Shown here: piece by piece, positions 1 through 31,125 of the stretch | How positions within the stretch are numbered: the first letter of the stretch is position 1 | Layout of the letters: each line of letters starts with the position of its first letter | Origin: an uncultured Anaerolineales bacterium | Lineage (GTDB): Bacteria > Chloroflexota > Anaerolineae > B4-G1 > SLSP01 | Direction: 5' to 3' | Assembly: GCA_964501335.1 (NCBI GenBank) | Contig: CAZCTC010000010.1 | Location: 128,001 to 160,759, forward strand | Length of the DNA stretch: 32,759 nucleotides | Made by a program: the position numbers and the translations under genes | The notes under the pieces: model-generated | Told to the model about the DNA's origin: nothing | The model's database searches: none | Seen by the model: the letters and a program-made list of their open reading frames with translations, nothing else

Positions 1-86
1 TCTTCTCGGAGAGTTTTGCTACCCCCTTACCCACATCACCTTCGGCGGTTCTTGCTGGCGCAGGTATTTTTCCCAGTTCACCTGAT

Positions 87-3000
87 TTGCCGTTGGTCGC
101 CTATCTGGTTGTGGGGGCGATTGCCATCTGGTTGGGGACTGGCCCCGCCATTGTGGCTGGCATTTTCAGCGGCTTTTTTCTTTCTGTGTATGTGCCCTTG
201 CCGTTGGCGGATATTTTCCTGCCGGCTTTCTTTGGCGGAGCGCTGGGCGTTTTTGTGCGCCAGCCTTTCCGTGGTTGGGTTTTCAAGATCGCCCGGCAAC
301 CGGTTTTAGCGGTCCCGCTGGCTCTTTGTTTTACCATGATGGCTTTGTGGTTCTCCCGGATGGGCGATGCTTTACCTCCGGGTGGATTGCAGATGGTCGA
401 TTATGCCTTTACCGTTTTGAAAAGCCAGATTGTGCTTTGGGGGGTGGGGGCGATTTGTCTGGCGGTTGTCTTCCAGGGGCTCTTCTTTATTCCTCGTGTT
501 CGTCCTGCTTTGCGTGCGGATGCGGCGCCTGCCTACAACCGGTCGCTGCGAGATCGGTTTATGATTGTGATTATTCCCCTGGTGCTCTTGAGCATTGTCC
601 TTTCGGTTTTTGCGGCCAGCAATCAGGCTATCCGGTCGGCGCAGGATCAGTCGCTCAATGAAATGCGGCGAAATACCGACAATGCCCGACAGGGAATCAA
701 TCACTTTTTTGTCACCGGCTCGAATTTATTGAAGACCTTCGTTGAAGATTCTGCCTTGCTCGATCCGGATTCGAAAGTGCGGGCACGGGCCATGGAGAAC
801 GATTTGCAGATGGTGCCCTTCTTCCAGCAGATGCTTTTTGTGGATATGCAGAAGCAGGTGGTGAATTCGGTGCCGGAAGGGATGGGATATCTGGAGTTGA
901 CGGCAGAAGAACAAAATATGGTCGATCAGGCCTTTTCTCTGGAAATCTCCAATTATACGCATTTGACTGAATTGACGCCGGGCACGGGGGAGGCTTATTT
1001 AACGTTTGTGCAGCCGGTTTTTTCCCCGGGGGACGGTTCGGTGGTGGGGGTTTTGTTGGGGCGAACTTTGTTGAATATTCAGCCGGATATTCAGCGGGCC
1101 CGCGATGCCTTGCAGATTTCTCAGGGTGTGGGCTTTATTATGGACGACCGGCGAATTATTTCGCATCCCGATCCGGCGATGTTGTTGCGCCATTGGGAAG
1201 GTAATACGTCGGAGACGAAAGAGTTCATCGATAATAATCTCCTGGGATCGCCGGAGGCTAAGAAAGACCATTTCTATGAGGATCTGGACTCCAACGGCGA
1301 GCGGGTGTTGACCTATATCAGCCGGGTCGAGGGCACGACCTATTATTTCGTTGTGTTGCAATTGCCCTATGCGACCGTTTTGGAATCGGCGACGGCGATT
1401 GCCGGTCCGATGTTGGTGGTGCAGTTGTTGATTGGTTTTGTGTTGTTGCTGGTGTTGCCGGTGCTTTCTTCACGGGTTACGCAGCCGCTTAATACGCTGG
1501 CGCTGGCCGCTCATCGCATTGCGCAGGGCAATTTGGGGATTCCGGTGGCGATTTCCGGCGAGGACGAGGTGGCCCAGTTGGGGCGGGCCTTTGAGCAGAT
1601 GCGGGTCGGTCTGCGCGCCCGGTTGGACGATCTTTCGTTGCTGCTTCGCATTTCGCAGGCGGTCTCGGCTACCCTGGATCTGGATCAAGGGGTGCCGCCG
1701 ATCCTTCAGGGGGTGTTGGAAGAGACGGGCGCGGCGGTGACTCACTTTGTGTTGTTGGGGAGCGGCGATCGGATTCAGCGTACCTTCTCGGTGGGGGCTG
1801 AAGATTCTGAATTCGCGGCGATCGATCGCACTTTTGCGACGGCTTTGCCGCGCCGCCGCGATCCGTTGGTGATTCAGGATTTACAGAAGGGCAATGCGGC
1901 TTTCCCGGCGACCCGACTGCGGAGCCTGGCGGCGTTGCCGGTGCGGACCAAGGATCGCGCGGTGGCGGTATTGTGGGTGGGGTCTGACCAGGTCAACGCC
2001 TTCGATGAGGCGCGGGTGAATTTCCTGAGCACGCTTTCCAGCCAGGCGGCGGTGTTGGTGGAAAATGTCCGGCTTTTCCAATCGGCGGAGGGGGGCCGGC
2101 GGCGGCTGGCGGCGATCCTTTCCAGTACCAGCGATGCCATTCTGGTTACCGATCAGGAAGGGCGGCTGTTGTTGATTAATCCGGCGGTGCAGCGGGTGTT
2201 GGGGCTGGATGAAGCGGCCTATGGGCGCCCGATTGAGGAGTTAAACCTGCCGCCGTCGTTGTGCGATGCGCTGAACCGTTCGGAGACGGAGCCCGGGCCG
2301 CCTTCGGTGGAAGTGCCGCTTTCGGGCAAACGGACTTTTTATGCCAGCGTGGCCCCTATTATGACGGCGGAAGGTCAGACGATGGGGCGGGTGGTCGTGA
2401 TGCGCGATATCACCCATTTTAAAGAGCTGGATGAGATGAAGTCGGATTTTGTGGCCACCGTCTCGCACGACCTGCGCGCGCCGCTGACCTTTATGCGCGG
2501 TTATGCGACGATGTTGACGATGGTCGGCGATATGAATGATAAGCAAAAGGAATATGTGGAGCATATTATGGAAGGGATCGAGCAGATGGGCGCTTTGATC
2601 GGCGATCTGCTCAATCTCAGCCGGGTGGAAGCCGGGGTGGGAATCAAGCGGGAACCGTGTCGGTTGGGGCTGGTGTTGGTGGAAGCGGTGGATACGATGC
2701 GGGCCCGGGCTTCGGCGAAGGGAATTGCATTGGGCCTTGATCCTGCGGAAGGGGCACCGGTGATCGTGGGCGATCGGACATTGCTGCGACAGGCGATTGG
2801 GAATCTGGTCGACAATGCGATCAAGTATACGCCGAATGGGGGGCAGGTACGGGTTGGTCTGGGGGTGAACGGTCCGGAAGCTGTGGTCCATGTGACGGAT
2901 ACCGGGCTGGGCATCGCGCCGGAAGATCAGGTGCGGTTGTTTGAGAAGTTCTATCGGGTGAAGCGCCGTGAGACGAGCGACATTCCCGGCACCGGTTTGG

Positions 3001-3122
3001 GGCTGGCGCTGGTCAAGTCGATTGTGGAGCACCATCAGGGGCGGGTGTGGGTGGAAAGCCAGTTGAACAAAGGGACGACCTTCTATGTGGCCCTGCCCCT
3101 GGCTCCTGAAGAGGAAAAGTAG
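87..3122 (+). CDS. Multidomain sensor histidine kinase (TM - large extracytoplasmic domain - TM - HAMP - GAF - PAS - HisKA - HATPase_c). The frame stays open upstream to the window edge, so the N-terminus may be truncated and the start uncertain (TTG at 87).
   Basis: 1011-aa ORF. HAMP-like segment after the second TM helix (PLNTLALAAHRIAQGNLG...EVAQLGRAFEQM). GAF-like block. PAS (DAILVTDQEGRLLLINPAVQRVLG). H-box SHDLRAPLT. N/G boxes (NLVDNAIKYT, DTGLGI, GTGLGLALV). Confidence 0.9.
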   Translation: MPLVAYLVVGAIAIWLGTGPAIVAGIFSGFFLSVYVPLPLADIFLPAFFGGALGVFVRQPFRGWVFKIARQPVLAVPLALCFTMMALWFSRMGDALPPGGLQMVDYAFTVLKSQIVLWGVGAICLAVVFQGLFFIPRVRPALRADAAPAYNRSLRDRFMIVIIPLVLLSIVLSVFAASNQAIRSAQDQSLNEMRRNTDNARQGINHFFVTGSNLLKTFVEDSALLDPDSKVRARAMENDLQMVPFFQQMLFVDMQKQVVNSVPEGMGYLELTAEEQNMVDQAFSLEISNYTHLTELTPGTGEAYLTFVQPVFSPGDGSVVGVLLGRTLLNIQPDIQRARDALQISQGVGFIMDDRRIISHPDPAMLLRHWEGNTSETKEFIDNNLLGSPEAKKDHFYEDLDSNGERVLTYISRVEGTTYYFVVLQLPYATVLESATAIAGPMLVVQLLIGFVLLLVLPVLSSRVTQPLNTLALAAHRIAQGNLGIPVAISGEDEVAQLGRAFEQMRVGLRARLDDLSLLLRISQAVSATLDLDQGVPPILQGVLEETGAAVTHFVLLGSGDRIQRTFSVGAEDSEFAAIDRTFATALPRRRDPLVIQDLQKGNAAFPATRLRSLAALPVRTKDRAVAVLWVGSDQVNAFDEARVNFLSTLSSQAAVLVENVRLFQSAEGGRRRLAAILSSTSDAILVTDQEGRLLLINPAVQRVLGLDEAAYGRPIEELNLPPSLCDALNRSETEPGPPSVEVPLSGKRTFYASVAPIMTAEGQTMGRVVVMRDITHFKELDEMKSDFVATVSHDLRAPLTFMRGYATMLTMVGDMNDKQKEYVEHIMEGIEQMGALIGDLLNLSRVEAGVGIKREPCRLGLVLVEAVDTMRARASAKGIALGLDPAEGAPVIVGDRTLLRQAIGNLVDNAIKYTPNGGQVRVGLGVNGPEAVVHVTDTGLGIAPEDQVRLFEKFYRVKRRETSDIPGTGLGLALVKSIVEHHQGRVWVESQLNKGTTFYVALPLAPEEEK

Positions 3123-3136
3123 TCAGTTGTGATTGT

Positions 3137-3664
3137 ATGGCAGTGAATTGGGGGGTGTTGGCTTTTTTTCTGGCGGCACTCGCGGGGGTGCTGTTCTATT
3201 TTGCCCGGCGGCTACGCCGCAGTTTGGGAATTCCTCAGGGGCAGGTGATTGAAGCCGATACCGATGGTTGGGAGATGCTGGCGCAACCTCTTGCCGCGCC
3301 TTCCTTAAAGCTGGTAGGACGACCGGATTATGTCGTCAATGACGGGGTGGATGTGATCCCCATTGGAATTAAATCCCACGCGGCTCCGCGGCAGCCCTAT
3401 CCCTCCCATGTGCTGCAACTGGCGGCCTATTGCGCTTTGGTGACGGAGACGTATGGGCGACGGCCGGGTTATGGGATTCTGCACTATGCCGATCGGACGT
3501 TTGAGATCCCTTATACGGAAGTCCTGGAGACCCAATTGCGGGAGACGTTGCTGGAGATGCGGGAGAATATGGCCGCCGGGGGCGGGACGCGCAACCATCG
3601 CGATGCGGGCCGCTGTCAGGAGTGCCGTTATCGTTCCAAGTGCCCGGATGTGCTGGAGAAGTGA
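3137..3664 (+). CDS. Cas4-like PD-(D/E)XK nuclease family protein (DUF83-like) with an N-terminal transmembrane anchor
   Basis: 175 aa. N-terminal hydrophobic helix (VLAFFLAALAGVLFYF). GRPDYVV (motif II Asp). IPIGIKS at the motif III position. QLAAYCAL (Q-x-x-x-Y). C-terminal C-x2-C-x5-C (CQECRYRSKC), typical of the Cas4/RecB-family Fe-S nuclease domain. Confidence 0.6.
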   Translation: MAVNWGVLAFFLAALAGVLFYFARRLRRSLGIPQGQVIEADTDGWEMLAQPLAAPSLKLVGRPDYVVNDGVDVIPIGIKSHAAPRQPYPSHVLQLAAYCALVTETYGRRPGYGILHYADRTFEIPYTEVLETQLRETLLEMRENMAAGGGTRNHRDAGRCQECRYRSKCPDVLEK

Positions 3665-3800
3665 AAAAGAGATTTCACCGCAGAGCACGCGGAGATCGCA
3701 GAGAGAGAAGGGAGGAGATTTTCTTTAAATTCTTCTCTGTGCCCTCTGCGCCTCGGCGGTGAGTCTTCGGGATGGGCTATTTTCAGGACAGATAACCATG
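3665..3800 (+). repeat. Copy A of the 3' module of the composite intergenic repeat (gagatttcacc...ttctttaaattcttctctgtg...ggtgagtctt...gggctattttcaggacaga-N-ccATG). Its terminal ATG is the start codon of the downstream kinase.
   Basis: About 80% identical by eye over about 130 bp to 10064-10196. Shared boxes are gagatttcacc, ctttaaattcttctctgtg, ggtgagtctt and ctattttcaggacaga. Confidence 0.7.
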
Positions 3801-4880
3801 TTAATTTTGGATTTAAAGCTGGTGCTTTTTATCGTGTTGGTGATCCTATCCGGGGCTGCCCTGGCGGCCTGGGAGTTTTATCGTTCACGGCAGCGCTATG
3901 GGTTGGGCACCACGCTGGAATCGGCGCCCTTTGGGGTGGTTTTGTTGGATGAGCAGCAAATCACTTATGCCAACGGGTATGCCCGGCGGGCGGCCGGCTT
4001 TGCCGCGGTGGGAAGATTGCCCGAGGCGCCCTGGCTGGAATTGCTGGCCGCGGATCGGGCGGCAGCCCGGAGTGATGCTACGGGAGCGGGGCGCTATCGT
4101 AGTGTGGCTTTCCCGGGTGGGGGGGCGGTGCGGTGGTGGGTTACGTCGGTCGGGTTGCGGGATCTGCTGGTGTTGTTGGATGCGACCGTCCATCCCGACG
4201 GCGAAGAGGCGGCGCGCTATTTGTTGAACGATCTGGCGCATGAATTGCGAACGCCGATGGCGACGATTCTGACGCATGCGGAAATTCTGGCGCTCCCTGA
4301 TATTGCCCCTGAAGTGCAACAGCAATCCCAACAGTTATTGAAAGAAGAGACCCGGCGGATGGCGCGGTTGGTGAACGATATGCTCGAACTGGGGCGTCTG
4401 GAGACGGGGGCTGAGATTGCGCTCCGGCCGGTGGATTTGATGGCGCTGGCCGAGGGGGCGGTGCGGCAGATTCAACCGCAGGCCGAGGCGCGGGCCATGA
4501 CGGTGACGCTGGAGGCCGGGGCGGAATTGCCGTTGGTGTTGGGGGATGAGGATCGACTGCGGCAGGTGTTGCTCAATTTGCTGGATAACGCTTTGAAGTA
4601 TTCCCGATCGGGGGACCGGGTCACGGTGGAATTGCAGGCGCGGGCCGGAGGGCTTTATTGTGCCGTGCGCGACAGCGGTCCCGGGATCGCGGCCCGCCAT
4701 TTGCCGCATCTGACGCGCCGTTTTTATCGGGCGGCGCCCCGGGGCATTGAGGGGAGCGGGCTGGGGCTTTCGCTGGCGGCAGAGATTTTGCGGCGGCACG
4801 GCAGCCGGTTGGAGATCGAGAGCCGGGTCGAGCCGCCCAGCGGCACCTCCGTTTCCTTTGAATTGCAAACTGAACAATGA
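3798..4880 (+). CDS. Sensor histidine kinase (single N-terminal TM, PAS-like region, HisKA, HATPase_c). An alternative GTG start at 3759 is in frame.
   Basis: H-box LAHELRTPMATI. N box LLNLLDNALKYS. G boxes DSGPGIA and GSGLGLSLAAEI. Hydrophobic N-terminus MLILDLKLVLFIVLVIL. Confidence 0.85.
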   Translation: MLILDLKLVLFIVLVILSGAALAAWEFYRSRQRYGLGTTLESAPFGVVLLDEQQITYANGYARRAAGFAAVGRLPEAPWLELLAADRAAARSDATGAGRYRSVAFPGGGAVRWWVTSVGLRDLLVLLDATVHPDGEEAARYLLNDLAHELRTPMATILTHAEILALPDIAPEVQQQSQQLLKEETRRMARLVNDMLELGRLETGAEIALRPVDLMALAEGAVRQIQPQAEARAMTVTLEAGAELPLVLGDEDRLRQVLLNLLDNALKYSRSGDRVTVELQARAGGLYCAVRDSGPGIAARHLPHLTRRFYRAAPRGIEGSGLGLSLAAEILRRHGSRLEIESRVEPPSGTSVSFELQTEQ

Positions 4881-6671: not shown

Positions 6672-7298
6672 ATGCAGGAGAAAATTCGGGTATTGCTGGC
6701 AGATGATCATCCGGCACTGCGGATGGGCTTGCGGGTGCTGTTGGATCGCGATGCCCGGATCACGGTGGTGGGAGAGGCGGAGAGTGGGGATGAGGCGTTG
6801 GCTCAGATCGAGGCGCTGCTGCCGGATGTGGCGGTTCTCGATTGCCAGTTGCCGGGGCTTGAAGGGGCGGCGGTGGCGGCGGAATTGAAGCGGCGGGGCC
6901 TTCCCTCTCGAATTCTGGCTCTGAGTGCCTATGACGACGATCGTTACCTGCAACAGATGTGGGAGGCGGGGGCGGTCGGTTATTTGCTTAAAAACGAGGC
7001 GCCGGGGGAGATTGTGGCGGCGGTTGTGGCTACCATGCAGGGCAAGGTGCTCTGGTCGACGGAGCAGCTGGCGCGGGCCCGGCGTTGGAACGACGATGTG
7101 GGGCGGCTGCGACGCAGTCTGACCGATCGGGAGACCGAGGTGTTGCAGCGGATGGCGGAGGGGTTGAGCAACAAAGAGATTGCGACGGCGCTTTCGGTGA
7201 CGGAACGGACGGTGGAATTCCATGTGGGGAATGTGCTGCGCAAATTGGGGGTGATTTCTCGGGTCGAGGCGGCTATCTGGGCCCGGGAACATTTGTAA
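6672..7298 (+). CDS. Two-component response regulator, NarL/FixJ (LuxR-type HTH) family
   Basis: REC domain (LLADDHPALRMGLRVLL, phospho-acceptor region VAVLDCQLPGLEG). C-terminal LuxR HTH (LTDRETEVLQRMAEGLSNKEIA...TVEFHVGNVLRKLG). Confidence 0.9.
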   Translation: MQEKIRVLLADDHPALRMGLRVLLDRDARITVVGEAESGDEALAQIEALLPDVAVLDCQLPGLEGAAVAAELKRRGLPSRILALSAYDDDRYLQQMWEAGAVGYLLKNEAPGEIVAAVVATMQGKVLWSTEQLARARRWNDDVGRLRRSLTDRETEVLQRMAEGLSNKEIATALSVTERTVEFHVGNVLRKLGVISRVEAAIWAREHL

Positions 7299-8387: not shown

Positions 8388-8502
8388 CTGGAAGGGCGGA
8401 AGATTGGAGGATTGGAAGAATGGAAGTACAACGTGATTTTCGCCGGCCTTCTGAGGCCGGCGAAAATCAAATAAAAAGATTTCTTCTCGGGAGGATAAAG
8501 TC
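8388..8502 (+). repeat. Intergenic repeat copy made of five 8-bp periodic GGAAG/GGAGG units (8388-8427), then the hairpin GATTTTCGCCGGCC-TTCTGA-GGCCGGCGAAAATC (8435-8468), then the A-rich box aaataaaaagatttcttctcggg
   Basis: The loop TTCTGA and the right flank (aaa-A-rich-tttcttctc-gg) match the other hairpin copies. Periodicity read directly. Confidence 0.6.
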
Positions 8503-9624: not shown

Positions 9625-9838
9625 CCATATCAGGCAACTTAAGGCGATTCATCAGTAGATCCCAGCTTTGGGACATCCCGCAAAGAGTATTTTCCCTGTA
9701 AGGTGCGACGCGCGGGAGGGGGGAGAGAGTTTTTTTATTCATTTTTTCGCGCGCCGTCTGCGGCGCGCGAAAAAATGGGCTTTCTTTCCCTTTTTCCGGG
9801 CGATTGCTGTTGCAAATGGTTTAAGTTGCCTGATATGG
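9625..9838 (-). repeat. Minus-oriented copy of the hairpin repeat (hairpin CATTTTTTCGCGCGCC-GTCTGC-GGCGCGCGAAAAAATG at 9739-9776; CGCGTCG and TTTGCGGGAtG boxes) bounded by 18-bp perfect terminal inverted repeats ccatatcaggcaacttaa (9625-9642) and ttaagttgcctgatatgg (9821-9838). MITE-like.
   Basis: The inverted repeats are an exact reverse complement. The internal boxes align with copy 9938-10196 when reverse-complemented. Confidence 0.65.
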
Positions 9839-9937: not shown

Positions 9938-10196
9938 TGTCGCCAGGGCGGCTCTGGAAAAGCCTATGTTTTTGCGCGCATTCTGATGCGCGCAAAAACA
10001 TAAACAAAAAAATTCTCTCTCCCGGTCCAGCGCGTCGTATCTGGCCGGGAAAAGATCATTTGCGGGACGCTAAAAGAGATTTCACCACAGAGGCGCAGAG
10101 AGCACGGAGAAGAAGAGAGGAGATTTTTCTTTAAATTCTTCTCTGTGTTTCCGTGGTGAGTCTTTTCTGGGCCTATTTTCAGGACAGAAGGCCATG
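9938..10196 (+). repeat. Full-length copy B of the composite intergenic repeat. Order: left box tgtcgccagggcggctctggaaaagcc; hairpin TATGTTTTTGCGCGCA-TTCTGA-TGCGCGCAAAAACATA (9965-10002); A-rich tract; tccagcgcgtcgtat; second small hairpin cccggtccag...ctggccggg; catttgcgggacgc; gagatttcacc module; ctttaaattcttctctgtg; ggtgagtctt; ctattttcaggacagaaggccATG.
   Basis: Every module recurs in the other copies (3665-3800, 4924-5182, 8388-8502, 9625-9838, 26341-26813, 29515-29645, 31025-31125, 32500-32759). Confidence 0.75.
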
Positions 10197-10325
10197 CAGT
10201 GGCGGCACCCCGAAAAAAGGTGAAATACCCCGAGGTTTTTTTGCATCCTCTGGATTTGGATTATACTTAAGCTGTTTCCTCTCTGATTGATGTTCCATAT
10301 TTCATTTTGCCTAAGGAGATGCAGG

Positions 10326-12253: not shown

Positions 12254-13594
12254 ATGAGGCGAAGTACCGCTGGAATCGATTTGGAGTTTGACGTTCCCAG
12301 GATTTTTGCCATGTTGCGGCGCCGGCGAAAAGAACGTCCTGTCCGGCGCCGCGCCTGTCTGGAACTGGAACGAAATGTCGGCGGTCCGCTCTGGCAACTG
12401 GTGGTGCTGGGGTTGATCACCAGTGCTTTGTTAAAGGAGCCCTTTTTCTTAGGGCTCACTTTTTGTATGGCGGCTTTTTTGGGGGTTGCCTGGCTGTGGG
12501 ACCATTTCAGCCTGACGGGGGTGCGTTATCGGCGTAAATTTAGTGAGGTGCGCGCTTTTCAGGGGGAAACGGTTATCTTGACTCTGGAAGTGGGCAATCA
12601 AAAGTGGTTGCCGGTGAGCTGGCTGGAGGTGGGCGACATTTTCCCCGGAGAACTGCCGGTGGCCGGCGAACGGGTGATCATCTCTTCATCGACCAATCAG
12701 GTCGAATTCACCACGTTCTGGCATCCGGCCGCTTATCAGAGTTTGACCCGGGTGATGGAAGTGCCCTGTATGCAGCGGGGGTATCATTTTTACGGGCCGG
12801 CAACGGTCCGTACCGGCGACGGCTTCGGCTTTTTCAGTCGGAAGTTGACTTTGCCGGAGCGGGATTTGCTGATCGTCTATCCCCGGCTCTATTCGGCGAC
12901 GGAACTCGATCTGCCTTCGAAGAATCCGTTTGGGGAGCGGCGGACGCTGTTCAAACTTTTTGAGGACCCGTTGCGTCCGGCGGGCATTCGCGACTGGCAG
13001 TTCGGCGATGGGATGCGGCGGGTGCACTGGAAGGCGACCGCGCGTTACGAGCGGTTGCTCAGCCGGATTTACGAGCCGAGCGAGGAGCCGCAGGTGATGA
13101 TTTTGTTGAATGTCTCCACGTTGCCGCGTTATTGGGAGGGGATTGTTCGAGAGTTGTTCGAGCGCACGGTCAGTGTGGCGGGCAGTCTGGCCGCGTTGGC
13201 CATCGAGGAGCGGTTGTCGGTCGGGCTGGCGGCCAATGCTTACTGGCCGGGGAGCGATCAGCGATTGGAGCTCTTCCCGGGGCGGCGGCAGGAGCAGTTG
13301 TTGCATATTTTGGAGTTGCTGGCGGCCGTGACGCCTTATGCCAGTGAATCTTTTGAATCTGTGTTGTTGCAGGTGGCTCCCCGATTGCCCTGGGGAGCCA
13401 CTTTGCTGGTCGTTTCGGCGGTTGCGACCCCCGAATTGTGGGAAACGCTGGTCGATCTGGATCGAGCCGGGCGACAGGTCACGCTCTTCACCCTGGTTGA
13501 GACGCCGCCCGAATTCCCGCCGATCGGCATTCCGGTTTATCATCTACCGCAGTTGATCGACGATCTGGTTATTCCTCAAAAGGTAGCGGAGTAG
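12254..13594 (+). CDS. DUF58 domain protein (vWA-like; usual partner of MoxR ATPases)
   Basis: N-terminal TM. DUF58 signature region IRDWQFGDGMRRVHWKATARYERLLSRIYEPSEEPQVMILLNVS (D-x-R-x-x-x-W-K-A-x-A-R...L-x-x-x-E, then a run of hydrophobics). Confidence 0.8.
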   Translation: MRRSTAGIDLEFDVPRIFAMLRRRRKERPVRRRACLELERNVGGPLWQLVVLGLITSALLKEPFFLGLTFCMAAFLGVAWLWDHFSLTGVRYRRKFSEVRAFQGETVILTLEVGNQKWLPVSWLEVGDIFPGELPVAGERVIISSSTNQVEFTTFWHPAAYQSLTRVMEVPCMQRGYHFYGPATVRTGDGFGFFSRKLTLPERDLLIVYPRLYSATELDLPSKNPFGERRTLFKLFEDPLRPAGIRDWQFGDGMRRVHWKATARYERLLSRIYEPSEEPQVMILLNVSTLPRYWEGIVRELFERTVSVAGSLAALAIEERLSVGLAANAYWPGSDQRLELFPGRRQEQLLHILELLAAVTPYASESFESVLLQVAPRLPWGATLLVVSAVATPELWETLVDLDRAGRQVTLFTLVETPPEFPPIGIPVYHLPQLIDDLVIPQKVAE

Positions 13595-13596
13595 GT

Positions 13597-15063
13597 ATGC
13601 AGCGCGGTGGTTTGTTTCTGGATTTACGGCGCAATTTACTTTATCTGTGCCTGGTAGGAATCGATTCCGCCTGGTTTGCTCTGCTGCTGCCTTTGTTGGG
13701 GGTGCAGTCGACCTTATCCTGGTCGCCGTTGATCTTGTGGGGTATGTTGGCGGTGGGGATGTGCGGCTGTCTGGTGGTGCTGGAGCTTTTCAATCGGATC
13801 GGTTTGGGGAGGCCCTGGTATCCGCTGGCCGTGGCGGCTCTGGTCCTCTTGACGATTGTGGGGCTGATGCGGGTGGTGATTTACAACGGCTGGCCCTTTT
13901 GGAGTTGGGGCTGGGGGGAGCAGATCCTGCTCAGCTTTTTGCTGTTTGAAACCTGGCCGCGGCCGGAGCTGGCGCTGGCTGCGACCGGCTTTTTTGTCTG
14001 GCAGCGGGCTACCTGGGCGACGCGTCGATCGCTGGATTGGCGTGATGTCAGCAGCAATTTCTGGTTGGGCCTCTTCTTTTTGGGCTGCGGCGGGCTCTTT
14101 TGGGAGTTGTGGTTGAAGCAGCCGGCGCCGTTGGCGTTTGTCTGGGGCTATTTTGGATTGGGGATGGTGGCGTTGGCGTTGACGCGGGCCCATACGGCGC
14201 CGTTGCTGGTGCGGAGCATGGGGGCAGAGCTTTCGCCGGTGCGGCTGGCTCAACTGGGGATGACGGTGGGCCTGACCTTGCTGATCGGCGGGTTGAGCTG
14301 GTGGGGGCTTTCACAGCCTTTAATAGGGTTTGTGGCCTGGCTGGGGCCGTTGTGGAACTTTCTCTTTGTGTTGGTGGAAGTGTTGGTGGTATTGTTGATT
14401 TTTGTCGGCTGGCGGTTCTGGCAGTTTATTTCGGAGCTGTTGAAGGGGGAGCTGCTGCCGGCCTTGCAAAATCTGGAGGATATCTCTCGCTCGATTCAGC
14501 AGCTGGGAGAACAATTGGCCCAGCAGGCCGGATTGAATTTTGTCTGGCCTCCCTGGCTCGGGCTGGTTTTGCGTATTGGTGTGGCATTGTTGATTTTGTT
14601 GCCGGGTTTGTGGCTGGTGCTGGTCTATTTGGGGATCATTCAGCCGCCGCGGCGCCGGGAGGACGACGAGTATGCGAATCGATTGTCGGCGGAGCGGTTG
14701 TTGTGGGATGGATTGGATTCGCTGCGCGATCTGGGCCGGTTGATGCGCCGGTATGGGTTCAGCCGGCAGATGCTGGCGGCGATTTCGGTGCAGAATCTCT
14801 ATGCCAATGTGTGTCGTTTGGGGCGGCGGCAGGGGCGGCCGCGGCGGCCGTCGCAGCCCCCGGATGCTTATTTGCCGCAGCTGGTGGCGGCTTTTGAGGG
14901 GCTGGATAGTCAGTTGTCCCGGATCACGGAGGCCTATATGCAGGTGCATTACGGGGATCGGTCGGTTACGAATGAGGAACTGGCCCGGCTGCGGAAGGAT
15001 TATGCGGAGGTGCGGGCGCAGGCGGGGCGGAAGCGGCGCCTGGACGTGAAACGTAAAACGTAA
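13597..15063 (+). CDS. Polytopic membrane protein with a C-terminal DUF4129-like domain (the third usual member of MoxR/DUF58 operons)
   Basis: About 10 hydrophobic helices. C-terminal region GRRQGRPRRPSQPPDAYLPQLVAAFEGLDSQLSRITEAYMQVHYGDRSVTNEELARLRKDY matches the DUF4129 pattern (R..G.P...S.TP.EY......L.......Y...RYG). Confidence 0.7.
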   Translation: MQRGGLFLDLRRNLLYLCLVGIDSAWFALLLPLLGVQSTLSWSPLILWGMLAVGMCGCLVVLELFNRIGLGRPWYPLAVAALVLLTIVGLMRVVIYNGWPFWSWGWGEQILLSFLLFETWPRPELALAATGFFVWQRATWATRRSLDWRDVSSNFWLGLFFLGCGGLFWELWLKQPAPLAFVWGYFGLGMVALALTRAHTAPLLVRSMGAELSPVRLAQLGMTVGLTLLIGGLSWWGLSQPLIGFVAWLGPLWNFLFVLVEVLVVLLIFVGWRFWQFISELLKGELLPALQNLEDISRSIQQLGEQLAQQAGLNFVWPPWLGLVLRIGVALLILLPGLWLVLVYLGIIQPPRRREDDEYANRLSAERLLWDGLDSLRDLGRLMRRYGFSRQMLAAISVQNLYANVCRLGRRQGRPRRPSQPPDAYLPQLVAAFEGLDSQLSRITEAYMQVHYGDRSVTNEELARLRKDYAEVRAQAGRKRRLDVKRKT

Positions 15064-15250
15064 AACGTATTTCCTGTCCTGCGCGGCGTTACAAGGCCGG
15101 GGGGCGGTACTTCAAAGGATGAAAATGGTTTGTCGGGTGCAGTTTCCTGGGGTCTGCGAATCCCAGGCTACCCTAAGGTCGCCCCTTTGGGGCTGAGAAG
15201 GCTCGACAAAAAGGTGCCTGCTAATTTAGCGAAGGCAAAAAAGGGGAAGG

Positions 15251-15288
15251 GGGGAATTTGCACGCCTTCTGAGGCGTGCAAATTCCCC
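15251..15288 (+). repeat. Perfect 16-bp hairpin GGGGAATTTGCACGCC-TTCTGA-GGCGTGCAAATTCCCC, a member of the TTCTGA-loop hairpin family, in the gap between the DUF4129 gene and moxR
   Basis: Exact inverted repeat with the family loop TTCTGA. Preceded by an A/G-rich tract (aaaaaaggggaagggg). No 3' T-tract. Confidence 0.7.
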
Positions 15289-15369
15289 TTAACAACACAC
15301 TCCCCCTTTCCCCCGCTTGCGGGGTGCGAAGCAGGGGGCAGGGGGGATAGAGGGATATAAGGAGGCCTT

Positions 15370-16308
15370 ATGGAGTTCTCAGAGCTGGCGAAAGCGATTA
15401 AACAGAATGTCGGCCGGGTGATCATCGGCAAGGCGGATGTGGTTGAGATGTTGTTGATTGCCCTGTTGACTGAGGGACATGTGCTGTTGGAGGATGTTCC
15501 AGGGATCGGCAAAACGACGCTGGCCAAGGCTTTGGCACGGAGTCTGGATGCTTCTTTTGCGCGCATCCAGTTCACGCCGGATCTGCTGCCGGGCGATGTC
15601 ACAGGGTTGAGCATTTACAATCAGAAAGAGCGGGAGTTTGAGTTTCACGCCGGGCCGGTTTTCCGTCAACTGCTGTTGGCCGATGAAATCAACCGGGCGA
15701 CGCCGCGGACCCAATCCAGCCTGCTGGAGGCCATGCAGGAGCAGCAGGTGACGGTGGACGGCAAGACCTATGCGTTGCCGCGGCCCTTTCTGGTCATTGC
15801 GACGCAGAATCCGATTGAGCTGGAGGGGACCTTTCCCTTGCCGGAGGCGCAGCTGGACCGCTTTTTGATGCAGGTGCGGTTGGGGTATCCCAGCGAAGCT
15901 GAGGAAGAGGAAATTCTCTTGCAATACGAGCGTCAGGATCCGCTGGTGGAGCTGCGGCCGGTGGTAACGATGGCCGAGATTCAGGAATTGCAGCGAAAAG
16001 TGCGGGAGATCCATGTCAATGGGGATGTGCGGCGGTATATCGTGCAGGTGGTGCGGACGACGCGGGAACATGAGGCGGTGGCGCTGGGCGGTTCGCCGCG
16101 GGGGACGCTGGCGCTCTATCGGTCAAGCCAGGCGCTGGCGGCGTTGCGGGGACGGGATTATGTCACGCCGGGCGATGTGCAGCAGCTCTGTCCGGCGATT
16201 TTAACGCATCGCGTGCATATTCGGCCGCAGGTGCGGTTACGAGGGCGTACGCCGGCGCAAGTAGTGGCGGAAATCATTGAAGCGGTGCCGGTACCGGTAG
16301 TTGAATAA
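15370..16308 (+). CDS. MoxR-family AAA+ ATPase
   Basis: SD aaggagg 15357-15363. Walker A GHVLLEDVPGIGKTTLAKALA. Walker B LLADEINRA. Characteristic MoxR length (312 aa) and C-terminal region (YVTPGDVQQL). Confidence 0.95.
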   Translation: MEFSELAKAIKQNVGRVIIGKADVVEMLLIALLTEGHVLLEDVPGIGKTTLAKALARSLDASFARIQFTPDLLPGDVTGLSIYNQKEREFEFHAGPVFRQLLLADEINRATPRTQSSLLEAMQEQQVTVDGKTYALPRPFLVIATQNPIELEGTFPLPEAQLDRFLMQVRLGYPSEAEEEEILLQYERQDPLVELRPVVTMAEIQELQRKVREIHVNGDVRRYIVQVVRTTREHEAVALGGSPRGTLALYRSSQALAALRGRDYVTPGDVQQLCPAILTHRVHIRPQVRLRGRTPAQVVAEIIEAVPVPVVE

Positions 16309-16312
16309 GGCT

Positions 16313-18343
16313 ATGATGGAGATTTCGGGTTATAAAATTCGCGTGAAAATAGCGCGGCTGGCCTTAAGCGGGCAATTTATCTGCCTTACTGGAATCCTGG
16401 TCATTTATTTTGGGCTGGCGTTGGGCTATAGAATTGCGGGGCCTTTTAATCGCCCTGTATGGATGAATTTGTATTTATTGCTGGCGCTGGATATCTGTTC
16501 TTTTATTTCCGTTTTCTGGTTGAGAAGATCGTTGACTCAGGCGGTGTGGGGGTATGCCTGGAGCAATCTCATTTATGTGGTTTTGATGCTGGGCTATCGG
16601 CTGCTCGATTTCAACTCTCCGAAAATCGATCCTCCTTATATTATCTTTTTATTGCATTTGAATATCTTTTCGTTGGGGATTATATTTGGTTTTCGTCCGG
16701 CGTTTAAATATGCCCTGGCGACCGTCGTCGTATTTTTAGTGGTGGGAATTTTCTATACCGAACGGCTGTCGATTGTGGTGGGAATTTTGTTTGCTTTGCT
16801 TATGACCTTTCCTCCTTTGGGGATCGATAAGTTAATGGCGGAGTTGCGGCAAAGCCAGGAAAAATTAAGTATCATTTTTCGAGAATCTCCGGATGTGATT
16901 TTAGTGTTGGATCCGGCGACAGGGAGAATTTGGGAGGGGAATGCCGCTGTCAAATGGGTGTTAGGTTACGTGGAAGAAGAGCTGCGTGGGGAACCTTTCA
17001 GTAAATTGTATGAATCGGATTCGCCGTTGGGAAAGGAGAAACTCTGGTATGTGGAGGCTCAGCGGCGGGATACCCACGGTTCCCAGTTCTTTTTGAAAGC
17101 CGATGGAACGCGCTGTCCGATGGATTGGACGGCGGCGCGCATTCCCTGGGATGAGGATTCGGCGATCCTGATTACGTTACGGGATGTGACGGAACGTTAT
17201 CAGGCGGAGGTGGAGCGAGCTCGTTTTACGGCCCAGTTGGGGGCCGCGGCCGAACTGGCGGCCCGGATCAATGCTTATCTGGATGCCGATCAGTTGTTGC
17301 CGATGGTGGTGGCTCAGGTGCAATCCCGCCTGGATGTGGCCCGGGCGGCGATCTATTTGTTGAATGAGGATTTGCAGGCGGCGCTTTCTCCTGCTGTTAA
17401 AGAGAGTGTGAGCCTGGGGGCATTGATGGCCTCGTCCAGCGTTATTGCCCGGGTGGTTCAGAACCGGGAGATGGTCAGGATTGACGATCTTCAGGAGTTG
17501 TCGTCAGAAGATCTTCCGTTTTTGCAGGCGGGGATGCAGACTCAACTGGTCGTTCCTTTGATTGTGCAGGATTGTCTGTTGGGCGTGATGGATCTTCAGG
17601 ATCTGCGGCCGGGGCGTTTTCATACCATCGATCTGGATGTCTTTTTCACGCTGGGGGTTCAGATCGCGACATCGCTTGAGAATGCGCGGCTCTTTGGGGA
17701 ATTGCAGAAGACGGCCCGTAATTTGCAGGGCCTTTCGCATCGTCTGGTGGCGGTGCAGGAGCAGGAGCGGCGGAACATTGCCTGTGAACTGCACGATGAG
17801 ATCGGGCAGATGTTGACGGCATTGAAGTTAATGCTGGATATGAGCAGCGGCGCCGGGGATTCGCAACAGGAGGCGCGGGATATGGTGCGCGATCTGTTGG
17901 AGCGGGTGCGCAACCTTTCGTTGGAGTTGCGGCCGCCGATGCTGGACGATTTAGGGATTTTGCCGGCGCTGGTCTGGCTTTTCAACCGTTATACCACGCA
18001 GACCCATATCAAAGTGAGTTTTCGCCATTCCGGGTTGGAGCGGCGTTTTACCCCGCAGATTGAGACGGCGGCCTATCGAGTGATCCAGGAATCGTTGACC
18101 AATGTCGCCCGCCATGCTCGTGTGCAAGAGGTCGAGGTGCGGTTGTGGGCGGATGAGGCGCAATTGCAGGTGCAGGTGGAAGATAACGGTCAGGGATTTG
18201 ATCTGGACGAAGTGCTGAGCCAGGCGGGTTCCAATGGATTATCGGGGATGCGGGAACGGGTTATGTTGTTGGGCGGAGAACTGACGATCGATTCCCGGCC
18301 GGGGGCGGGGACTTCGCTGGTGGCGGAGTTGCCCTTGCAATGA
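16313..18343 (+). CDS. Sensor histidine kinase, NarL-partner type (polytopic membrane domain - PAS - GAF - HisKA_3 - HATPase_c). A TTG at 16301 overlapping the moxR stop is an alternative start.
   Basis: HisKA_3 H-box CELHDEIGQMLTALK. HATPase N/G boxes (LTNVARHA, DNGQGFD, GLSGMRERVMLLGG). GAF block before LENARLFGELQ. AT-richer N-terminal membrane domain with a PVWMNLYLL motif. Confidence 0.9.
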   Translation: MMEISGYKIRVKIARLALSGQFICLTGILVIYFGLALGYRIAGPFNRPVWMNLYLLLALDICSFISVFWLRRSLTQAVWGYAWSNLIYVVLMLGYRLLDFNSPKIDPPYIIFLLHLNIFSLGIIFGFRPAFKYALATVVVFLVVGIFYTERLSIVVGILFALLMTFPPLGIDKLMAELRQSQEKLSIIFRESPDVILVLDPATGRIWEGNAAVKWVLGYVEEELRGEPFSKLYESDSPLGKEKLWYVEAQRRDTHGSQFFLKADGTRCPMDWTAARIPWDEDSAILITLRDVTERYQAEVERARFTAQLGAAAELAARINAYLDADQLLPMVVAQVQSRLDVARAAIYLLNEDLQAALSPAVKESVSLGALMASSSVIARVVQNREMVRIDDLQELSSEDLPFLQAGMQTQLVVPLIVQDCLLGVMDLQDLRPGRFHTIDLDVFFTLGVQIATSLENARLFGELQKTARNLQGLSHRLVAVQEQERRNIACELHDEIGQMLTALKLMLDMSSGAGDSQQEARDMVRDLLERVRNLSLELRPPMLDDLGILPALVWLFNRYTTQTHIKVSFRHSGLERRFTPQIETAAYRVIQESLTNVARHARVQEVEVRLWADEAQLQVQVEDNGQGFDLDEVLSQAGSNGLSGMRERVMLLGGELTIDSRPGAGTSLVAELPLQ

Positions 18344-20409
18344 AGACATCTAAGGAAAGCTATTTAGAAATCGATTATTCTGAACAGCTTGCCCGGGAGA
18401 AGATTGCCAGGGTGATTTTGCTTAGCAATGTTATTGCCCTTGGAGCCCTTTTTATTTTCAATCTGGTTAGATTAATCTTAATGTTAACGGAAGAGCCGGG
18501 GTATCAACCCGCCTGGTATTCATTCTTTAGTATGGCGGCGTTGGTGGGGGGCGGGATTGTTGCGTTGGGTTGGATCAGGAGATCGCTTTTTGCGGGAATG
18601 GTGTTTTACGCCTGGTTTGCATTGTTTTGTGTCCTGGTAATGATTGTGGGAGCCTTTATATGGGGAGGTCTGCAACGTTACCCTTTAATAGTGTTAGTTT
18701 TTTATATAGGGATTTTATCTCTCAGTGTTATTGTAGGATATAAGACAGCTTTACCTTATGCAATTGTTGTGTCTTTGGTAATGGTGGTCTGTGGGGTAAT
18801 TTTTAATGATGTGCTTTTTTCAGTACCTTTGGTCGTTACCTCTTATTTAATGGTTTTGCCAGCCTTATTCATTGATTATATGACCGATAGTATAAGACAG
18901 AGTGAACAACGGTTTAAAATCCTTTTTCAGGAATCGCCGGATTTGATTGTGGTCGTTGAACGAGAAACGGGGATTGTGTTACATGTCAATTCGGCGTTGG
19001 AACGTTTTACAGGGTATTTTCCTGAAATGTTGATAGGCAAATCCTTTTTTGATGTTTTTCCTCAAGAAGTGTTTCCTGACTTAACTGAAATTTCAGAGGG
19101 TCAACCCCGAGCCGAATTTCGTGCTGTTGCAGATCGAGCTTTTTATCGGTTGGATGGGACTCTTATTTTTATGGATTTGAGTATAGCTTCAATAGTTTGG
19201 ATGAAGAGATCTGCTTTGTTGGTGGTTTTAAGAGACGTTACTGGGCGCCATCGCGCAGAGGAAGACCGTCAACATTTTACGAAACAATTGCGAGTGGCCG
19301 CAGAGTTGACTGGCCAGATTAATACCTGTCTGAACTCTGAAGCCTTAACTTTCATGATAGAAAATCAAATGGAGCAACTTTTGAATTTGAGTCGGGTGAG
19401 AATTTTTCTCTTTGATGAAAAAAGTCAAACCCTTGTTCGATATGCAGGTGGCTCGGAAATTGTGAAATCTTATCATTTGCAGGATCCCTACCTAGTGGCA
19501 CAAGCTGCCCATGATCTCATTCTGGTTCAGGCCCTTAAAGAATCAAAGATGGATGATGGGAGGAGATTGGATTCTGAGGGGGATATGGGAGGGCAGGTAG
19601 CAGTACCTTTGGTTTCACATGGAAAACTTTTGGGAGTGTTAGACATTCAAGATATCAGTCCAAATCGATTTCATCCCGGTGATCTGGATATTTTCTATAC
19701 TTTGGCAGGGCAAATTGCTGTAGCTTTGGAAAATGCTCGTTTATTTGGAGACTTGCAGAAGACGGCGATGCATTTACAGGGGCTTTCTTTGCGGTTGCTT
19801 GAGGTTCAGGAGCAGGAACGTCGGAATATTGCGTGTGAGTTGCATGATGAGATGGGCCAAATGTTAACTGCTATCAAGTTGCTTTTGGAAATGAAGAAGT
19901 CCAAATTGGGGAGGGCGGCAGATAATTCGGATCAGGAAATTGGGGATCTTGTGTCGGATTTGTTGAATCGAATTCGGAATCTCTCTTTGCAATTGCGACC
20001 GCCGATGCTCGATGATCTGGGGATTTTACCAACTTTAGTATGGTTGTTTAATCGTTATAGCCATCAAACTCAGATAAAGGTTAATTTTAAGCATGTGGGA
20101 TTGGAACGCCGTTTTTCTTCTCAGGTAGAGACAGTTATCTATCGTGTAATTCAAGAATCTTTAACTAATGTAGCACGTTACGCTATGGTGGATAATGTCG
20201 ACGTTTATATCTGGGGGGATGAATCAATTTTACGGTTACAGGTCGACGATAATGGAGTCGGGTTTGATTTGGATAAGGTTTCAGGTCAATTGAGCTCTAA
20301 CGGCCTTTCTGGCATGCAGGAACGGGTTACTTTACTGGGGGGACAATTCTTGATAGATTCTAAACCAAATTTTGGAACCCATTTGATGGCGGAAATTCCC
20401 CTGCAATAA
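18340..20409 (+). CDS. Sensor histidine kinase, tandem paralog of 16313-18343 (membrane domain - PAS - GAF - HisKA_3 - HATPase_c), distinctly AT-richer than its neighbour
   Basis: ATGA start/stop overlap with the upstream kinase. H-box CELHDEMGQMLTAIK. ENARLFGDLQKTAMHLQGL is nearly identical to the paralog. Membrane-domain motif EPGYQPAWYSFFS. Confidence 0.9.
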   Translation: MKTSKESYLEIDYSEQLAREKIARVILLSNVIALGALFIFNLVRLILMLTEEPGYQPAWYSFFSMAALVGGGIVALGWIRRSLFAGMVFYAWFALFCVLVMIVGAFIWGGLQRYPLIVLVFYIGILSLSVIVGYKTALPYAIVVSLVMVVCGVIFNDVLFSVPLVVTSYLMVLPALFIDYMTDSIRQSEQRFKILFQESPDLIVVVERETGIVLHVNSALERFTGYFPEMLIGKSFFDVFPQEVFPDLTEISEGQPRAEFRAVADRAFYRLDGTLIFMDLSIASIVWMKRSALLVVLRDVTGRHRAEEDRQHFTKQLRVAAELTGQINTCLNSEALTFMIENQMEQLLNLSRVRIFLFDEKSQTLVRYAGGSEIVKSYHLQDPYLVAQAAHDLILVQALKESKMDDGRRLDSEGDMGGQVAVPLVSHGKLLGVLDIQDISPNRFHPGDLDIFYTLAGQIAVALENARLFGDLQKTAMHLQGLSLRLLEVQEQERRNIACELHDEMGQMLTAIKLLLEMKKSKLGRAADNSDQEIGDLVSDLLNRIRNLSLQLRPPMLDDLGILPTLVWLFNRYSHQTQIKVNFKHVGLERRFSSQVETVIYRVIQESLTNVARYAMVDNVDVYIWGDESILRLQVDDNGVGFDLDKVSGQLSSNGLSGMQERVTLLGGQFLIDSKPNFGTHLMAEIPLQ

Positions 20410-26340: not shown

Positions 26341-26813
26341 GTGTCGCCGGGGCAGCTCTGGAAAGGGCTATGTTTTCGTGCTTAGCCCTCACCCCAACCC
26401 CTCCCCATGCAGTAGTACCGGTGTAGCGCGCTTTCGGGTGATTCCTGGTGAAGATGCGCGGCCGGCATGGAGGTGAGGGGCTTAAGATGACGTCGCCGGG
26501 GCGGCTCTGGAAAGGGCTATGTTTTCGTGCTTAGCCCTCACCCCAACCCCTCCCCATGCAGTAGTACCGGTGTAGCGCGCTTTCGGGTGATTCCTGGTGA
26601 AGATGCGCGGCCGGCATGGAGGTGAGGGGCTTAAGATGACGTCGCCGGGGCGGCTCTGGAAAGGGCTATGTTTTCGTGCGCATCAGAATGCGCACGAAAA
26701 CATCAACAAAAAACTCTCTCCCGATCCTGCGCGGCGTAGCTTAGGGGGAAAGTATCATTTGCGGGACGCCACAGGGTTGACCTGTTTTCAGGACCGTCGT
26801 GAGGTGATTTATG
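26341..26813 (+). repeat. Copy D of the composite repeat. It contains a 148-bp unit tandemly duplicated 2.3 times (26345-26640). Each complete unit splits the family hairpin with a 111-bp insert bounded by imperfect inverted repeats (ttagccctcacc ... ggtgaggggcttaa). The intact hairpin TATGTTTTCGTGCGCA-TCAGAA-TGCGCACGAAAACAT lies at 26667-26703, followed by the cctgcgcggcgta and catttgcgggacgc boxes and ttttcaggac...ATG.
   Basis: Units 26345-26492 and 26493-26640 are identical except for one base (gcagctctgg vs gcggctctgg). The third unit continues into the intact hairpin. All boxes match the other copies. Confidence 0.7.
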
Positions 26814-29514: not shown

Positions 29515-29645
29515 GTTGGTTGGGAGAAAAATCTATTTTTTCGCGCGCCGTCTGCGGCGCGCGAAAAAATAAACAAAAAAATTTCCCCCATCCAGCGTGT
29601 CGTTTCGAGCCGAACAAAAGCCTTTTGCGGGACGCTAAAATGCTA
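29515..29645 (+). repeat. Repeat copy with hairpin TATTTTTTCGCGCGCC-GTCTGC-GGCGCGCGAAAAAATA (29534-29571), then aaacaaaaaaatttccccc, tccagcgtgtcgt and ttttgcgggacgctaaaa boxes, in the convergent gap between the methyltransferase gene and obg
   Basis: The hairpin core is identical to the one at 9741-9774. Flank boxes match copy B. Confidence 0.7.
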
Positions 29646-31024: not shown

Positions 31025-31125
31025 GTTGGAAAAAAGTCCGTGTTTTTGCGCGCATTCTGATGCGCGCAAAAACACAAACAAAAACTCTCTCCGTTTATCC
31101 CGCGCGTCGTTTTTTACCAGGAAAG
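31025..31125 (+). repeat. Repeat copy with hairpin TGTTTTTGCGCGCA-TTCTGA-TGCGCGCAAAAACA (31041-31074), then aaacaaaaactctctcc and cccgcgcgtcgt boxes, between the obg start and the MFS gene end
   Basis: The hairpin core is identical to the one at 9965-10002. Flank boxes match. Confidence 0.7.

Follow-up and report, generated by a model that had tools for sequence, protein, structure and literature searches.

A Cas4-like gene from a Chloroflexota bacterium is probably one half of a split, membrane-anchored enzyme and carries glycine at the motif III glutamate position

We analyzed a stretch of 32,759 nucleotides from an uncultured Anaerolineales bacterium (contig CAZCTC010000010.1 of assembly GCA_964501335.1, positions 128,001 to 160,759; the whole stretch is called the window below), focusing on the Cas4-like gene at 3137-3664. 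This gene is probably the C-terminal half (C-half) of a Cas4-like family of Anaerolineae-type Chloroflexota that is split into two genes, and the window appears to hold an orphan copy that was recently inactivated or strongly impaired through a GAA-to-GGA change. Most relatives have a second, complementary small gene, referred to here as the N-half. Literature searches turned up no account of a Cas4 that is split or anchored in the membrane, and this two-gene family with its two membrane anchors seems not to have been described before.

The window gene is a real open reading frame (ORF) with an ATG start and a product of 175 residues. It bears the Cas4/DUF83 landmarks that an earlier sequence-only reading of this DNA had picked out, namely GRPDYVV at residues 61-67 (with Asp64 inside), QLAAY at residues 94-98, and the cysteine triad C160-x2-C163-x5-C169. 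IPIGIKS occupies residues 74-80. The only cysteines are at positions 99, 160, 163 and 169, and none precedes Cys99, in line with the claim that the protein has no cysteine before residue 97. Its features are as follows.

3137-3664, + strand: predicted C-half subunit gene of a split, membrane-anchored Cas4-like PD-(D/E)XK family, 175 residues (ORF, Pfam, TIGR00372, AlphaFold2, Foldseek).
3149-3226, + strand: predicted N-terminal membrane helix, residues 5-30, followed by RRLRRS (Kyte-Doolittle, AlphaFold2, family conservation).
3317-3337, + strand: motif II GRPDYVV with the invariant Asp64 (family alignment and alignment to Cas4 4R5Q).
3365-3367, + strand: codon 77, GGA (Gly), at the Glu site of motif III E-x-K, a private substitution (profile alignment; relatives all Glu).
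3416-3433, + strand: QLAAY and then Cys99 (family alignment; Q94 and Y98 invariant).
3614-3643, + strand: C160-x2-C163-x5-C169, predicted C-terminal iron–sulfur (Fe-S) ligand cysteines of Cas4 (each conserved in 120/121 rows; alignment to 8D3L and 4R5Q).

Profile and structure comparisons place the protein in the Cas4 family. Pfam PDDEXK_1 (35.1 bits, cut-off 22) and Pfam Cas_Cas4 (24.4 bits, cut-off 22.7) both match above their cut-offs, the latter over profile positions 55-158 of 160. The NCBIfam equivalog TIGR00372 (cas4) scores 53.9 bits, where 65 would be needed, and its match spans only profile positions 60-180 of 180; since this match starts at position 60, the N-terminal third of Cas4 is missing from the window protein. 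A single-sequence phmmer search against the PDB returned nothing meaningful, and a profile of 59 family members matched Cas4 8D3L (E = 1.2e-5), Cas4 4R5Q (E = 5.4e-4) and the Cas4-Cas1 fusion 7MI4. In the profile alignment the family consensus 'liPvEvKsg' lies on FPVEYKRG of 8D3L and IPVEIKTG of 4R5Q, so that Gly77 sits at the position of the motif III glutamate, while GRPD aligns with the G-x-x-D motif of 4R5Q and the cysteine triad with the C-terminal C-x2-C-x5-C of both structures. The sequence-only reading had put glycine in place of the catalytic acid on condition that its motif alignment was right; the profile alignment to solved Cas4 structures confirms it, leaving no Glu or Asp at the true motif III position.

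The AlphaFold2 model of the window protein, built from a 59-sequence alignment, has a mean predicted local distance difference test (pLDDT) score of 91.2. Foldseek searches of the PDB with this model return Cas4 first (8D3Q and 8D3L of type I-C and 4IC1, SSO0001; E values from 2.6e-6 to 2.3e-5, probability 1.00), followed by MGME1, Dna2, ACE1, AdnAB and Exo5. The model begins with a helix at residues 5-30 (pLDDT 93-98), and the highest 19-residue Kyte-Doolittle mean (2.15) starts at residue 5, both of which bear out the earlier proposal of a leading transmembrane helix. This hydrophobic N-terminal segment is conserved across the C-half family. The RRLRRS segment behind the helix suggests, by the positive-inside rule, that the catalytic domain is cytoplasmic.

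We compared the window protein with two sets of relatives. A database search with the window protein gave 136 homologues; among the best 120, which are those listed, lengths are nearly all 166-189 residues (typically about 170-180), and the named sources are Anaerolineae, Caldilineaceae, Promineifilaceae, Litorilinea and unclassified Chloroflexota. The family alignment made from them has 121 rows, including the query and an identical database copy. In addition, a scan of one genome per GTDB species found that 335 species encode a relative. We fetched the 80 best loci, all of which come from Chloroflexota and which include the isolate Anaerolinea thermolimosa IMO-1 (L076), and the sequences of 82 relatives read from fetched loci served for a second check of individual residues. 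The window protein is 41% to 89% identical to family members. The family consensus consists of the membrane helix, G-L-P-x-G...D41, GRPD, P-V-E-V-K-S, H-x2-Q-L-A-A-Y-C and R-x-H...C-x2-C-x5-C.

Asp64 is present in all 121 rows and all 82 locus-derived sequences; Asp41, Q94 and Y98 are likewise invariant in both sets, and C160, C163 and C169 are each conserved in 120/121 rows. Cys99 (3431-3433), directly after the tyrosine of Q-x3-Y, is also conserved in 120/121 family members, and the aligned solved Cas4 sequences have no cysteine there. The '3-Cys cluster' of the sequence-only reading is thus borne out as a triad, but Cys99 was overlooked. Position 77 is Glu in 119/121 rows and in 82/82 locus-derived sequences, and Gly occurs only in the query and its identical database copy. 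The closest relative, P0002 (locus L002), is 89% identical and has GAA at codon 77, where the window gene has GGA. Conservation reaches 90% or more in 37 alignment columns, and V76I and E77G are the only departures of the window protein from them.

Comparison of the window gene with that of P0002 gives 0.53 synonymous (dS) and 0.064 nonsynonymous (dN) substitutions per site, hence a dN/dS of 0.12, and this ratio together with the 136 homologues indicates that the window ORF is a real gene. General gene decay was considered and is ruled out by the same ratio and by the deviation of only two of the 37 conserved columns. Polarizing the 19 differences between the window protein and its sister with ten outgroups assigned 13 derived changes to the window lineage and 4 to the sister's, with 2 ambiguous (17 polarizable changes; binomial p = 0.049), an excess that hints at some relaxation of constraint on the window lineage. 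The sister itself (L002 1303-1830) keeps Glu77 and carries H91Q at a site that is His in 118/118 other family members; each of the two closest sequences therefore bears one change at an otherwise invariant residue.

The motif III glutamate binds the catalytic metal, and its replacement by glycine predicts that nuclease activity of the window copy would be lost or severely reduced. Impaired catalysis, as the sequence-only reading had it, remains the natural expectation, but an evolved or repurposed active site does not fit a glycine that is private to one sequence when 119/119 other rows and 82/82 relatives have Glu. The window copy is most likely recently inactivated or strongly impaired rather than the bearer of a long-evolved variant active site. 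There is a less probable account, and on balance an unlikely one, in which Gly77 stems from an error in base calling, assembly or consensus building or from a minority allele, and the real gene reads GAA and encodes an ordinary active member. The change is a single transition, every other conserved residue is intact, selection on the gene is evident from its dN/dS, and the window sequence comes from metagenome assemblies. However, the Logan assembly of SRR6476076 contains an identical 528-nt gene, although it may derive from the same reads as the window, and one base error would not produce the 13 against 4 derived changes.

The N-terminal part of Cas4 that the window protein lacks is found in relatives as a separate gene. 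Clustering of neighbouring ORFs exposed a small ORF upstream of the C-half, which encodes 80-95 residues with the pattern 'IRASEIGqYxyCarAWWL...G-x3-H-x2-HG' followed by a C-terminal hydrophobic helix. Searches with tblastn located this N-half upstream of the C-half and on the same strand in 68/80 loci (for example at 9756-9989 in L076 and 9758-9985 in L082). The sequence-only reading called the window protein 'stand-alone'; this holds insofar as the window contains no partner, but not for the family, in which most members have the second gene. In none of these 68 loci is the N-half fused to the C-half; it always has an open frame of its own, and since its frame relative to the C-half takes all three possible values across the loci, a frameshift artefact is excluded. 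The end of the N-half lies no more than about 120 nt from the aligned start of the C-half in 63/68 loci, and several pairs overlap or abut; the five other distances are 203, 327, 672, 772 and 9623 nt.

A profile search with the N-half found 2187 database proteins of about 79-96 residues, mostly unnamed or labelled 'hypothetical protein', a few with a JGI Cas4 label, and, among the 120 matches listed, none with a precomputed Pfam domain. We found no natural fusion of the two halves: of the longest hits, P0104 (221 residues) is C-terminally divergent, and P0145 (139 residues) is an N-terminally extended gene call. The two halves match successive parts of single-chain Cas4, as listed here.

Pfam Cas_Cas4 (160 positions): N-half at 3-51 (23/33 members match, best E = 5.5e-4), C-half at 55-158.
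TIGR00372 (180 positions): N-half at 2-48 (E = 1.8e-5), C-half at 60-180.
PDB 8D3L (218 residues): N-half at 5-48, C-half at 102-202.

Single N-half profile matches are weak, yet they are mutually consistent and collinear with those of the C-half. Cys18, His45 and His48 are invariant in the N-half alignment. According to a passage of PMC13621843 that cites Lemak 2013, the catalytic metal ligands of SSO0001 are His62, Asp99 and Glu113, and since His62 binds the metal there, a metal-binding histidine is expected on the N-half. As judged from these alignments, the first cysteine of the canonical Fe-S set lies on the N-half, and so, very probably, does the histidine that binds the metal. The division of the family into two genes accounts for the missing N-terminal cysteine and the leading membrane helix of the C-half. 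Of the three oddities that the sequence-only reading took for peculiarities of this protein, only the glycine is its own; the other two are traits of the split family. The N-half is predicted to be tail-anchored and the C-half head-anchored, and the positive-inside rule would put both soluble parts in the cytoplasm.

We propose the following arrangement. The family would consist of an N-half of about 80-95 residues, with the first Fe-S cysteine, the G-x3-H-x2-H-G histidine motif and a terminal membrane helix, and a C-half of about 170-180 residues, with a starting membrane helix, the motif II Asp, motif III E-x-K, Q-x3-Y and C-x2-C-x5-C. The two membrane helices may pair, and the two soluble pieces would then rebuild a single Cas4 fold on the cytoplasmic side of the membrane, where both chains would contribute to the active site as well as to the Fe-S cluster. 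In the subclade of the window, a large sensor kinase gene immediately precedes the C-half gene, which would have been relocated there, and no N-half lies close by. In the window copy alone, Gly replaces the metal-binding Glu, through the single GAA-to-GGA transition.

This kinase-linked subclade is defined by its gene order. A kinase gene stands directly before the C-half in L002, L003, L004, L083/L084, L085 and L086, and where it is complete, it encodes a sensor kinase of about 1100 residues. L083/L084 share further gene order with the window, namely the small downstream kinase, a 483-residue protein and a LuxR-type regulator. No N-half was found in the 32.7-kb window with tblastn or with a hidden Markov model (HMM) run on six-frame segments of at least 25 residues, and the HMM found none in the six other kinase-linked loci. 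All six of their members keep Glu77, Asp64, Lys79, Gln94, Tyr98 and all cysteines, indicating that the C-half is still under selection in the subclade. Their genomes may encode an N-half at another site; otherwise the C-half would function without a partner. An unlinked arrangement does exist, as the N-half of L075 lies 9.6 kb from its C-half.

Two residues mark the subclade. Gly164, which follows the second cysteine of C-x2-C, is present in 67/68 loci with an adjacent N-half and in 8/8 other loci without one. In contrast, none of the seven kinase-linked sequences (window, L002, L003, L004, L083, L085 and L086) has Gly there; they read R, L, L, L, A, L and P, the window residue being Arg (codon 3626-3628). 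L100A also marks the subclade. The loss of Gly164 would fit an altered Fe-S cluster environment where the N-half is not adjacent.

The neighbourhoods of relatives point to a role in nucleic-acid processing. The recurrent neighbours counted here lie on the same strand. The commonest is an upstream gene resembling that of archaeal AfTRAX (39/80 loci; PDB 3ZC1, E = 9e-21), whose product of about 218 residues is encoded upstream of the N-half/C-half pair (for example at 9056-9712 in L052). SSB and DUF3467 genes are upstream in 19/80 loci each and often precede the TRAX-like gene. Downstream genes include NAD kinase in 15/80 loci and RecN in 14/80. No recurrent cas gene (cas1 or cas2) stands next to the family in the 80 related loci. 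Hudaiberdiev et al. 2017 (PMC5704561) describe a monophyletic solo-Cas4 in many Chloroflexi and a mainly vertical inheritance of solo-cas4. Because of this vertical inheritance and the partial synteny, we infer that the family is a vertically inherited enzyme that processes or repairs DNA or nucleic-acid ends at the membrane, with a housekeeping role and not one in adaptation by clustered regularly interspaced short palindromic repeats (CRISPR). Two side observations concern these neighbours: a B-box membrane protein is often encoded downstream of the pair, and the NCBIfam name of the TRAX-like family, 'haloacid dehalogenase superfamily protein', looks like a misnomer.

Several observations weigh against our interpretation of the window gene as a recently impaired C-half of a two-chain enzyme. 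Its dN/dS and otherwise near-full conservation are unlike those of a decaying pseudogene, which means either that the mutation is very recent or that the protein keeps a selectable role. The heterodimer is proposed from gene adjacency and complementary homology. In the six other kinase-linked loci, all catalytic residues persist although no N-half lies close by, and if the C-half works alone there, 'obligate two-subunit enzyme' is too strong a term. The model does not account for Cys99, which is kept family-wide and might be an extra cluster ligand or a redox site, among other roles. Finally, the DNA-repair role draws on partial synteny only, in 14 to 39 of the 80 loci.

A variant that we hold to be somewhat more doubtful than a sequence artefact makes the enzyme an obligate two-chain nuclease, with the catalytic His and first Fe-S Cys from the N-half and the Asp, Glu, Lys and three further Cys from the C-half; the kinase-linked C-half would have shed its partner for a new role with the sensor kinase, and the window protein would be a catalytically dead pseudo-nuclease under selection. 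Also improbable, and a little more so, is a repurposed non-catalytic scaffold, in which the kinase-linked C-half serves as a membrane-anchored DNA-binding or signalling accessory and the loss of the Glu is tolerated or adaptive. Such a role would agree with the kinase-then-C-half order, kept in 7 distinct loci although their proteins share only 57-63% identity with that of the window, with the lack of an N-half within 10 kb in any kinase-linked locus, with the subclade-wide loss of Gly164 (0/7 against 67/68) and L100A, and with a gene under selection. Yet the other six kinase-linked members retain the catalytic set and the cysteines, which are apparently still needed, Gly77 is private to one sequence, and adjacency to a kinase is no proof of a functional link.

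We give the same low standing to the idea that the window protein is still an active nuclease, in which Glu39, two residues before the invariant Asp41, compensates for the lost Glu77. Relocation of active-site residues is known within the PD-(D/E)XK superfamily, and Glu39 occurs only in the window protein and P0002, the position being Tyr in 64/82 others and otherwise Ala, Ser or Phe. However, P0002 has both Glu39 and Glu77, so Glu39 is no replacement there, and motif III mutants of characterised Cas4 enzymes are reportedly inactive. Least credible of all is a role in CRISPR adaptation, with the protein serving in trans a CRISPR-Cas locus in another part of the genome: Cas4 models do match and several databases name relatives 'CRISPR-associated exonuclease Cas4', but the window has neither an array nor a Cas domain, the neighbours in the 80 loci are SSB, TRAX-like, NAD kinase and RecN genes and not cas1 or cas2, the score falls under the TIGR00372 equivalog cut-off, and to our knowledge no adaptation-module Cas4 combines membrane tethering with a two-gene split. 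Recent impairment of a C-half from a split Cas4-like family is the reading we keep.

The surroundings of the gene in the window include the following features.

1-3122 (ORF 87-3122), + strand: upstream sensor histidine kinase, dCache-HAMP-GAF-PAS-HisKA-HATPase, cut by the window start (Pfam).
3719-3800, no strand assigned: copy of a dispersed intergenic repeat (families D14, I10 and I13) between the Cas4-like gene and the small kinase; other copies at 10082-10202 and 32503-32536.
3798-4880, + strand: downstream small histidine kinase, HisKA-HATPase (Pfam; Logan gene call of 360 residues, L001 10662-11744).

The upstream kinase is 1108 residues long in the gene call on the Logan contig. As the sequence-only reading had noted, the kinase, which ends at 3122, is separated from the Cas4-like ORF by 14 bp, and because of this spacing the two genes are probably co-transcribed; no promoter-like site was found in 2800-4000. 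The downstream kinase probably starts at ATG 3798 rather than at GTG 3759. The intergenic repeat (3719-3800, 10082-10202 and 32503-32536) ends in '...GGGCTATTTTCAGGACAGAnnnCCATG', and the terminal ATG of the copy at 3774-3800 is the probable small-kinase start at 3798. The repeat with this GGGCTATTTTCAGGACAGAnnnCCATG end may be a shared 5' leader or promoter-region element.

The earlier statement that the window holds no CRISPR array and no other cas gene agrees with our scans: no CRISPR-like array was found in the window, and a scan of 20 other window ORFs gave no match to a Cas domain. The sole tandem repeat is a duplication at 26343-26679, with a 149-bp unit in 2.3 copies at 99% identity that overlaps one copy of a palindromic repeat. 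These palindromes are dispersed, intergenic and perfect over 36 nt (ATnTTTTCGCGCGC...GCGCGCGAAAAnAT), lie within longer repeated units that resemble repetitive extragenic palindromic (REP) elements or miniature inverted-repeat transposable elements (MITEs), and occur at 8434-8469, 9741-9776, 9966-10001, 26668-26703, 29535-29570, 31040-31075 and 32721-32756, with flanking families of 58-96 nt. In the sister locus L002, a similar though different palindrome lies in the gap between kinase and C-half; the window gap has none. The sequence-only reading had raised a link between hairpin repeats and the Cas4-like gene, which we abandon, since the repeats are dispersed between genes window-wide and nothing ties them to the family.

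The window is unusually dense in two-component genes: a span of 24 kb has five genes for histidine kinases and one for a LuxR-type response regulator (87-3122, 3759-4880, 16301-18343, 18340-20409, 21854-23659 and 6672-7298). Genes for DUF58, DUF4129 and MoxR-type AAA ATPase proteins adjoin one another at 12254-16308; other bacteria are known to have this arrangement too, and it is unrelated to the Cas4-like finding.

The split lineage offers three handles on the function of solo-Cas4: the natural split places the metal-binding His and the first Fe-S cysteine on a chain of their own, each half has a predicted membrane anchor, and the genes recur beside those for SSB, a TRAX-like nuclease, NAD kinase and RecN. 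Should the halves assemble, they would readily lend themselves to dissecting the parts that the Fe-S 'staple' and the N-terminal segment play in Cas4-family nucleases, and would show why a DNA-end nuclease might act at the membrane. Annotation is affected too, as the N-half is nearly always a 'hypothetical protein' and the C-half is variously 'CRISPR-associated Cas4', though these loci show no CRISPR tie. The window gene by itself has lesser weight, as a candidate natural knock-out by a single residue; the family architecture is the more interesting result.

Among known systems, CRISPR Cas4 (PF01930/DUF83, COG1468, TIGR00372; 4IC1 SSO0001, 4R5Q Pcal_0546, 8D3L of type I-C and the Cas4-Cas1 protein 7MI4) gives the best profile and fold matches. 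The window protein has in common with it the RecB-type PD-(D/E)XK core, the motif II Asp, the x-K of motif III, Q-x3-Y and the C-terminal C-x2-C-x5-C. However, the window polypeptide corresponds to only about the C-terminal two-thirds of Cas4, has a membrane helix in place of the segment with Cys1 and His, and reads G77-I-K79 with Gly at the motif III Glu. No cas1, cas2 or array lies near the gene, which makes it a 'solo' type; Pfam, fold and neighbourhoods all support the earlier description of a Cas4-like PD-(D/E)XK protein without CRISPR association. Three Cas4 hallmarks are missing from the polypeptide, namely the glutamate of motif III and, at the N-terminus, the His segment and the Cys. 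The most fitting description is that of a C-half from a split solo-Cas4-like enzyme.

The window family very probably belongs to the lineage of the Chloroflexi solo-Cas4 of PMC5704561. According to that paper, solo-cas4 genes evolve mainly vertically under ordinary purifying selection, and every member of the Cas4 family has its catalytic motifs intact and conserves four cysteines; neither 'split' nor 'transmembrane' occurs in its text. The family here differs from this account in that a second gene product carries the first Cys and the His motif and both products are predicted to be membrane-anchored, and the window copy differs further in lacking the motif III Glu.

The iron-staple nucleases of the AddB, Dna2, Exo5 and MGME1 type have the same fold class as the window protein. 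In these enzymes one Cys lies N-terminal and three lie C-terminal of the core, and together they clamp the Fe-S cluster. They are soluble single-chain domains, usually within larger helicase-nuclease proteins, whereas here the staple would close between two chains. A precedent for a Cas4 fold without catalytic residues, in a structural or other role, is the TTV1 nucleocapsid protein (cited in PMC5704561). Derivatives of that type are viral and long-diverged, whereas the window copy has a single private substitution in an otherwise conserved cellular gene.

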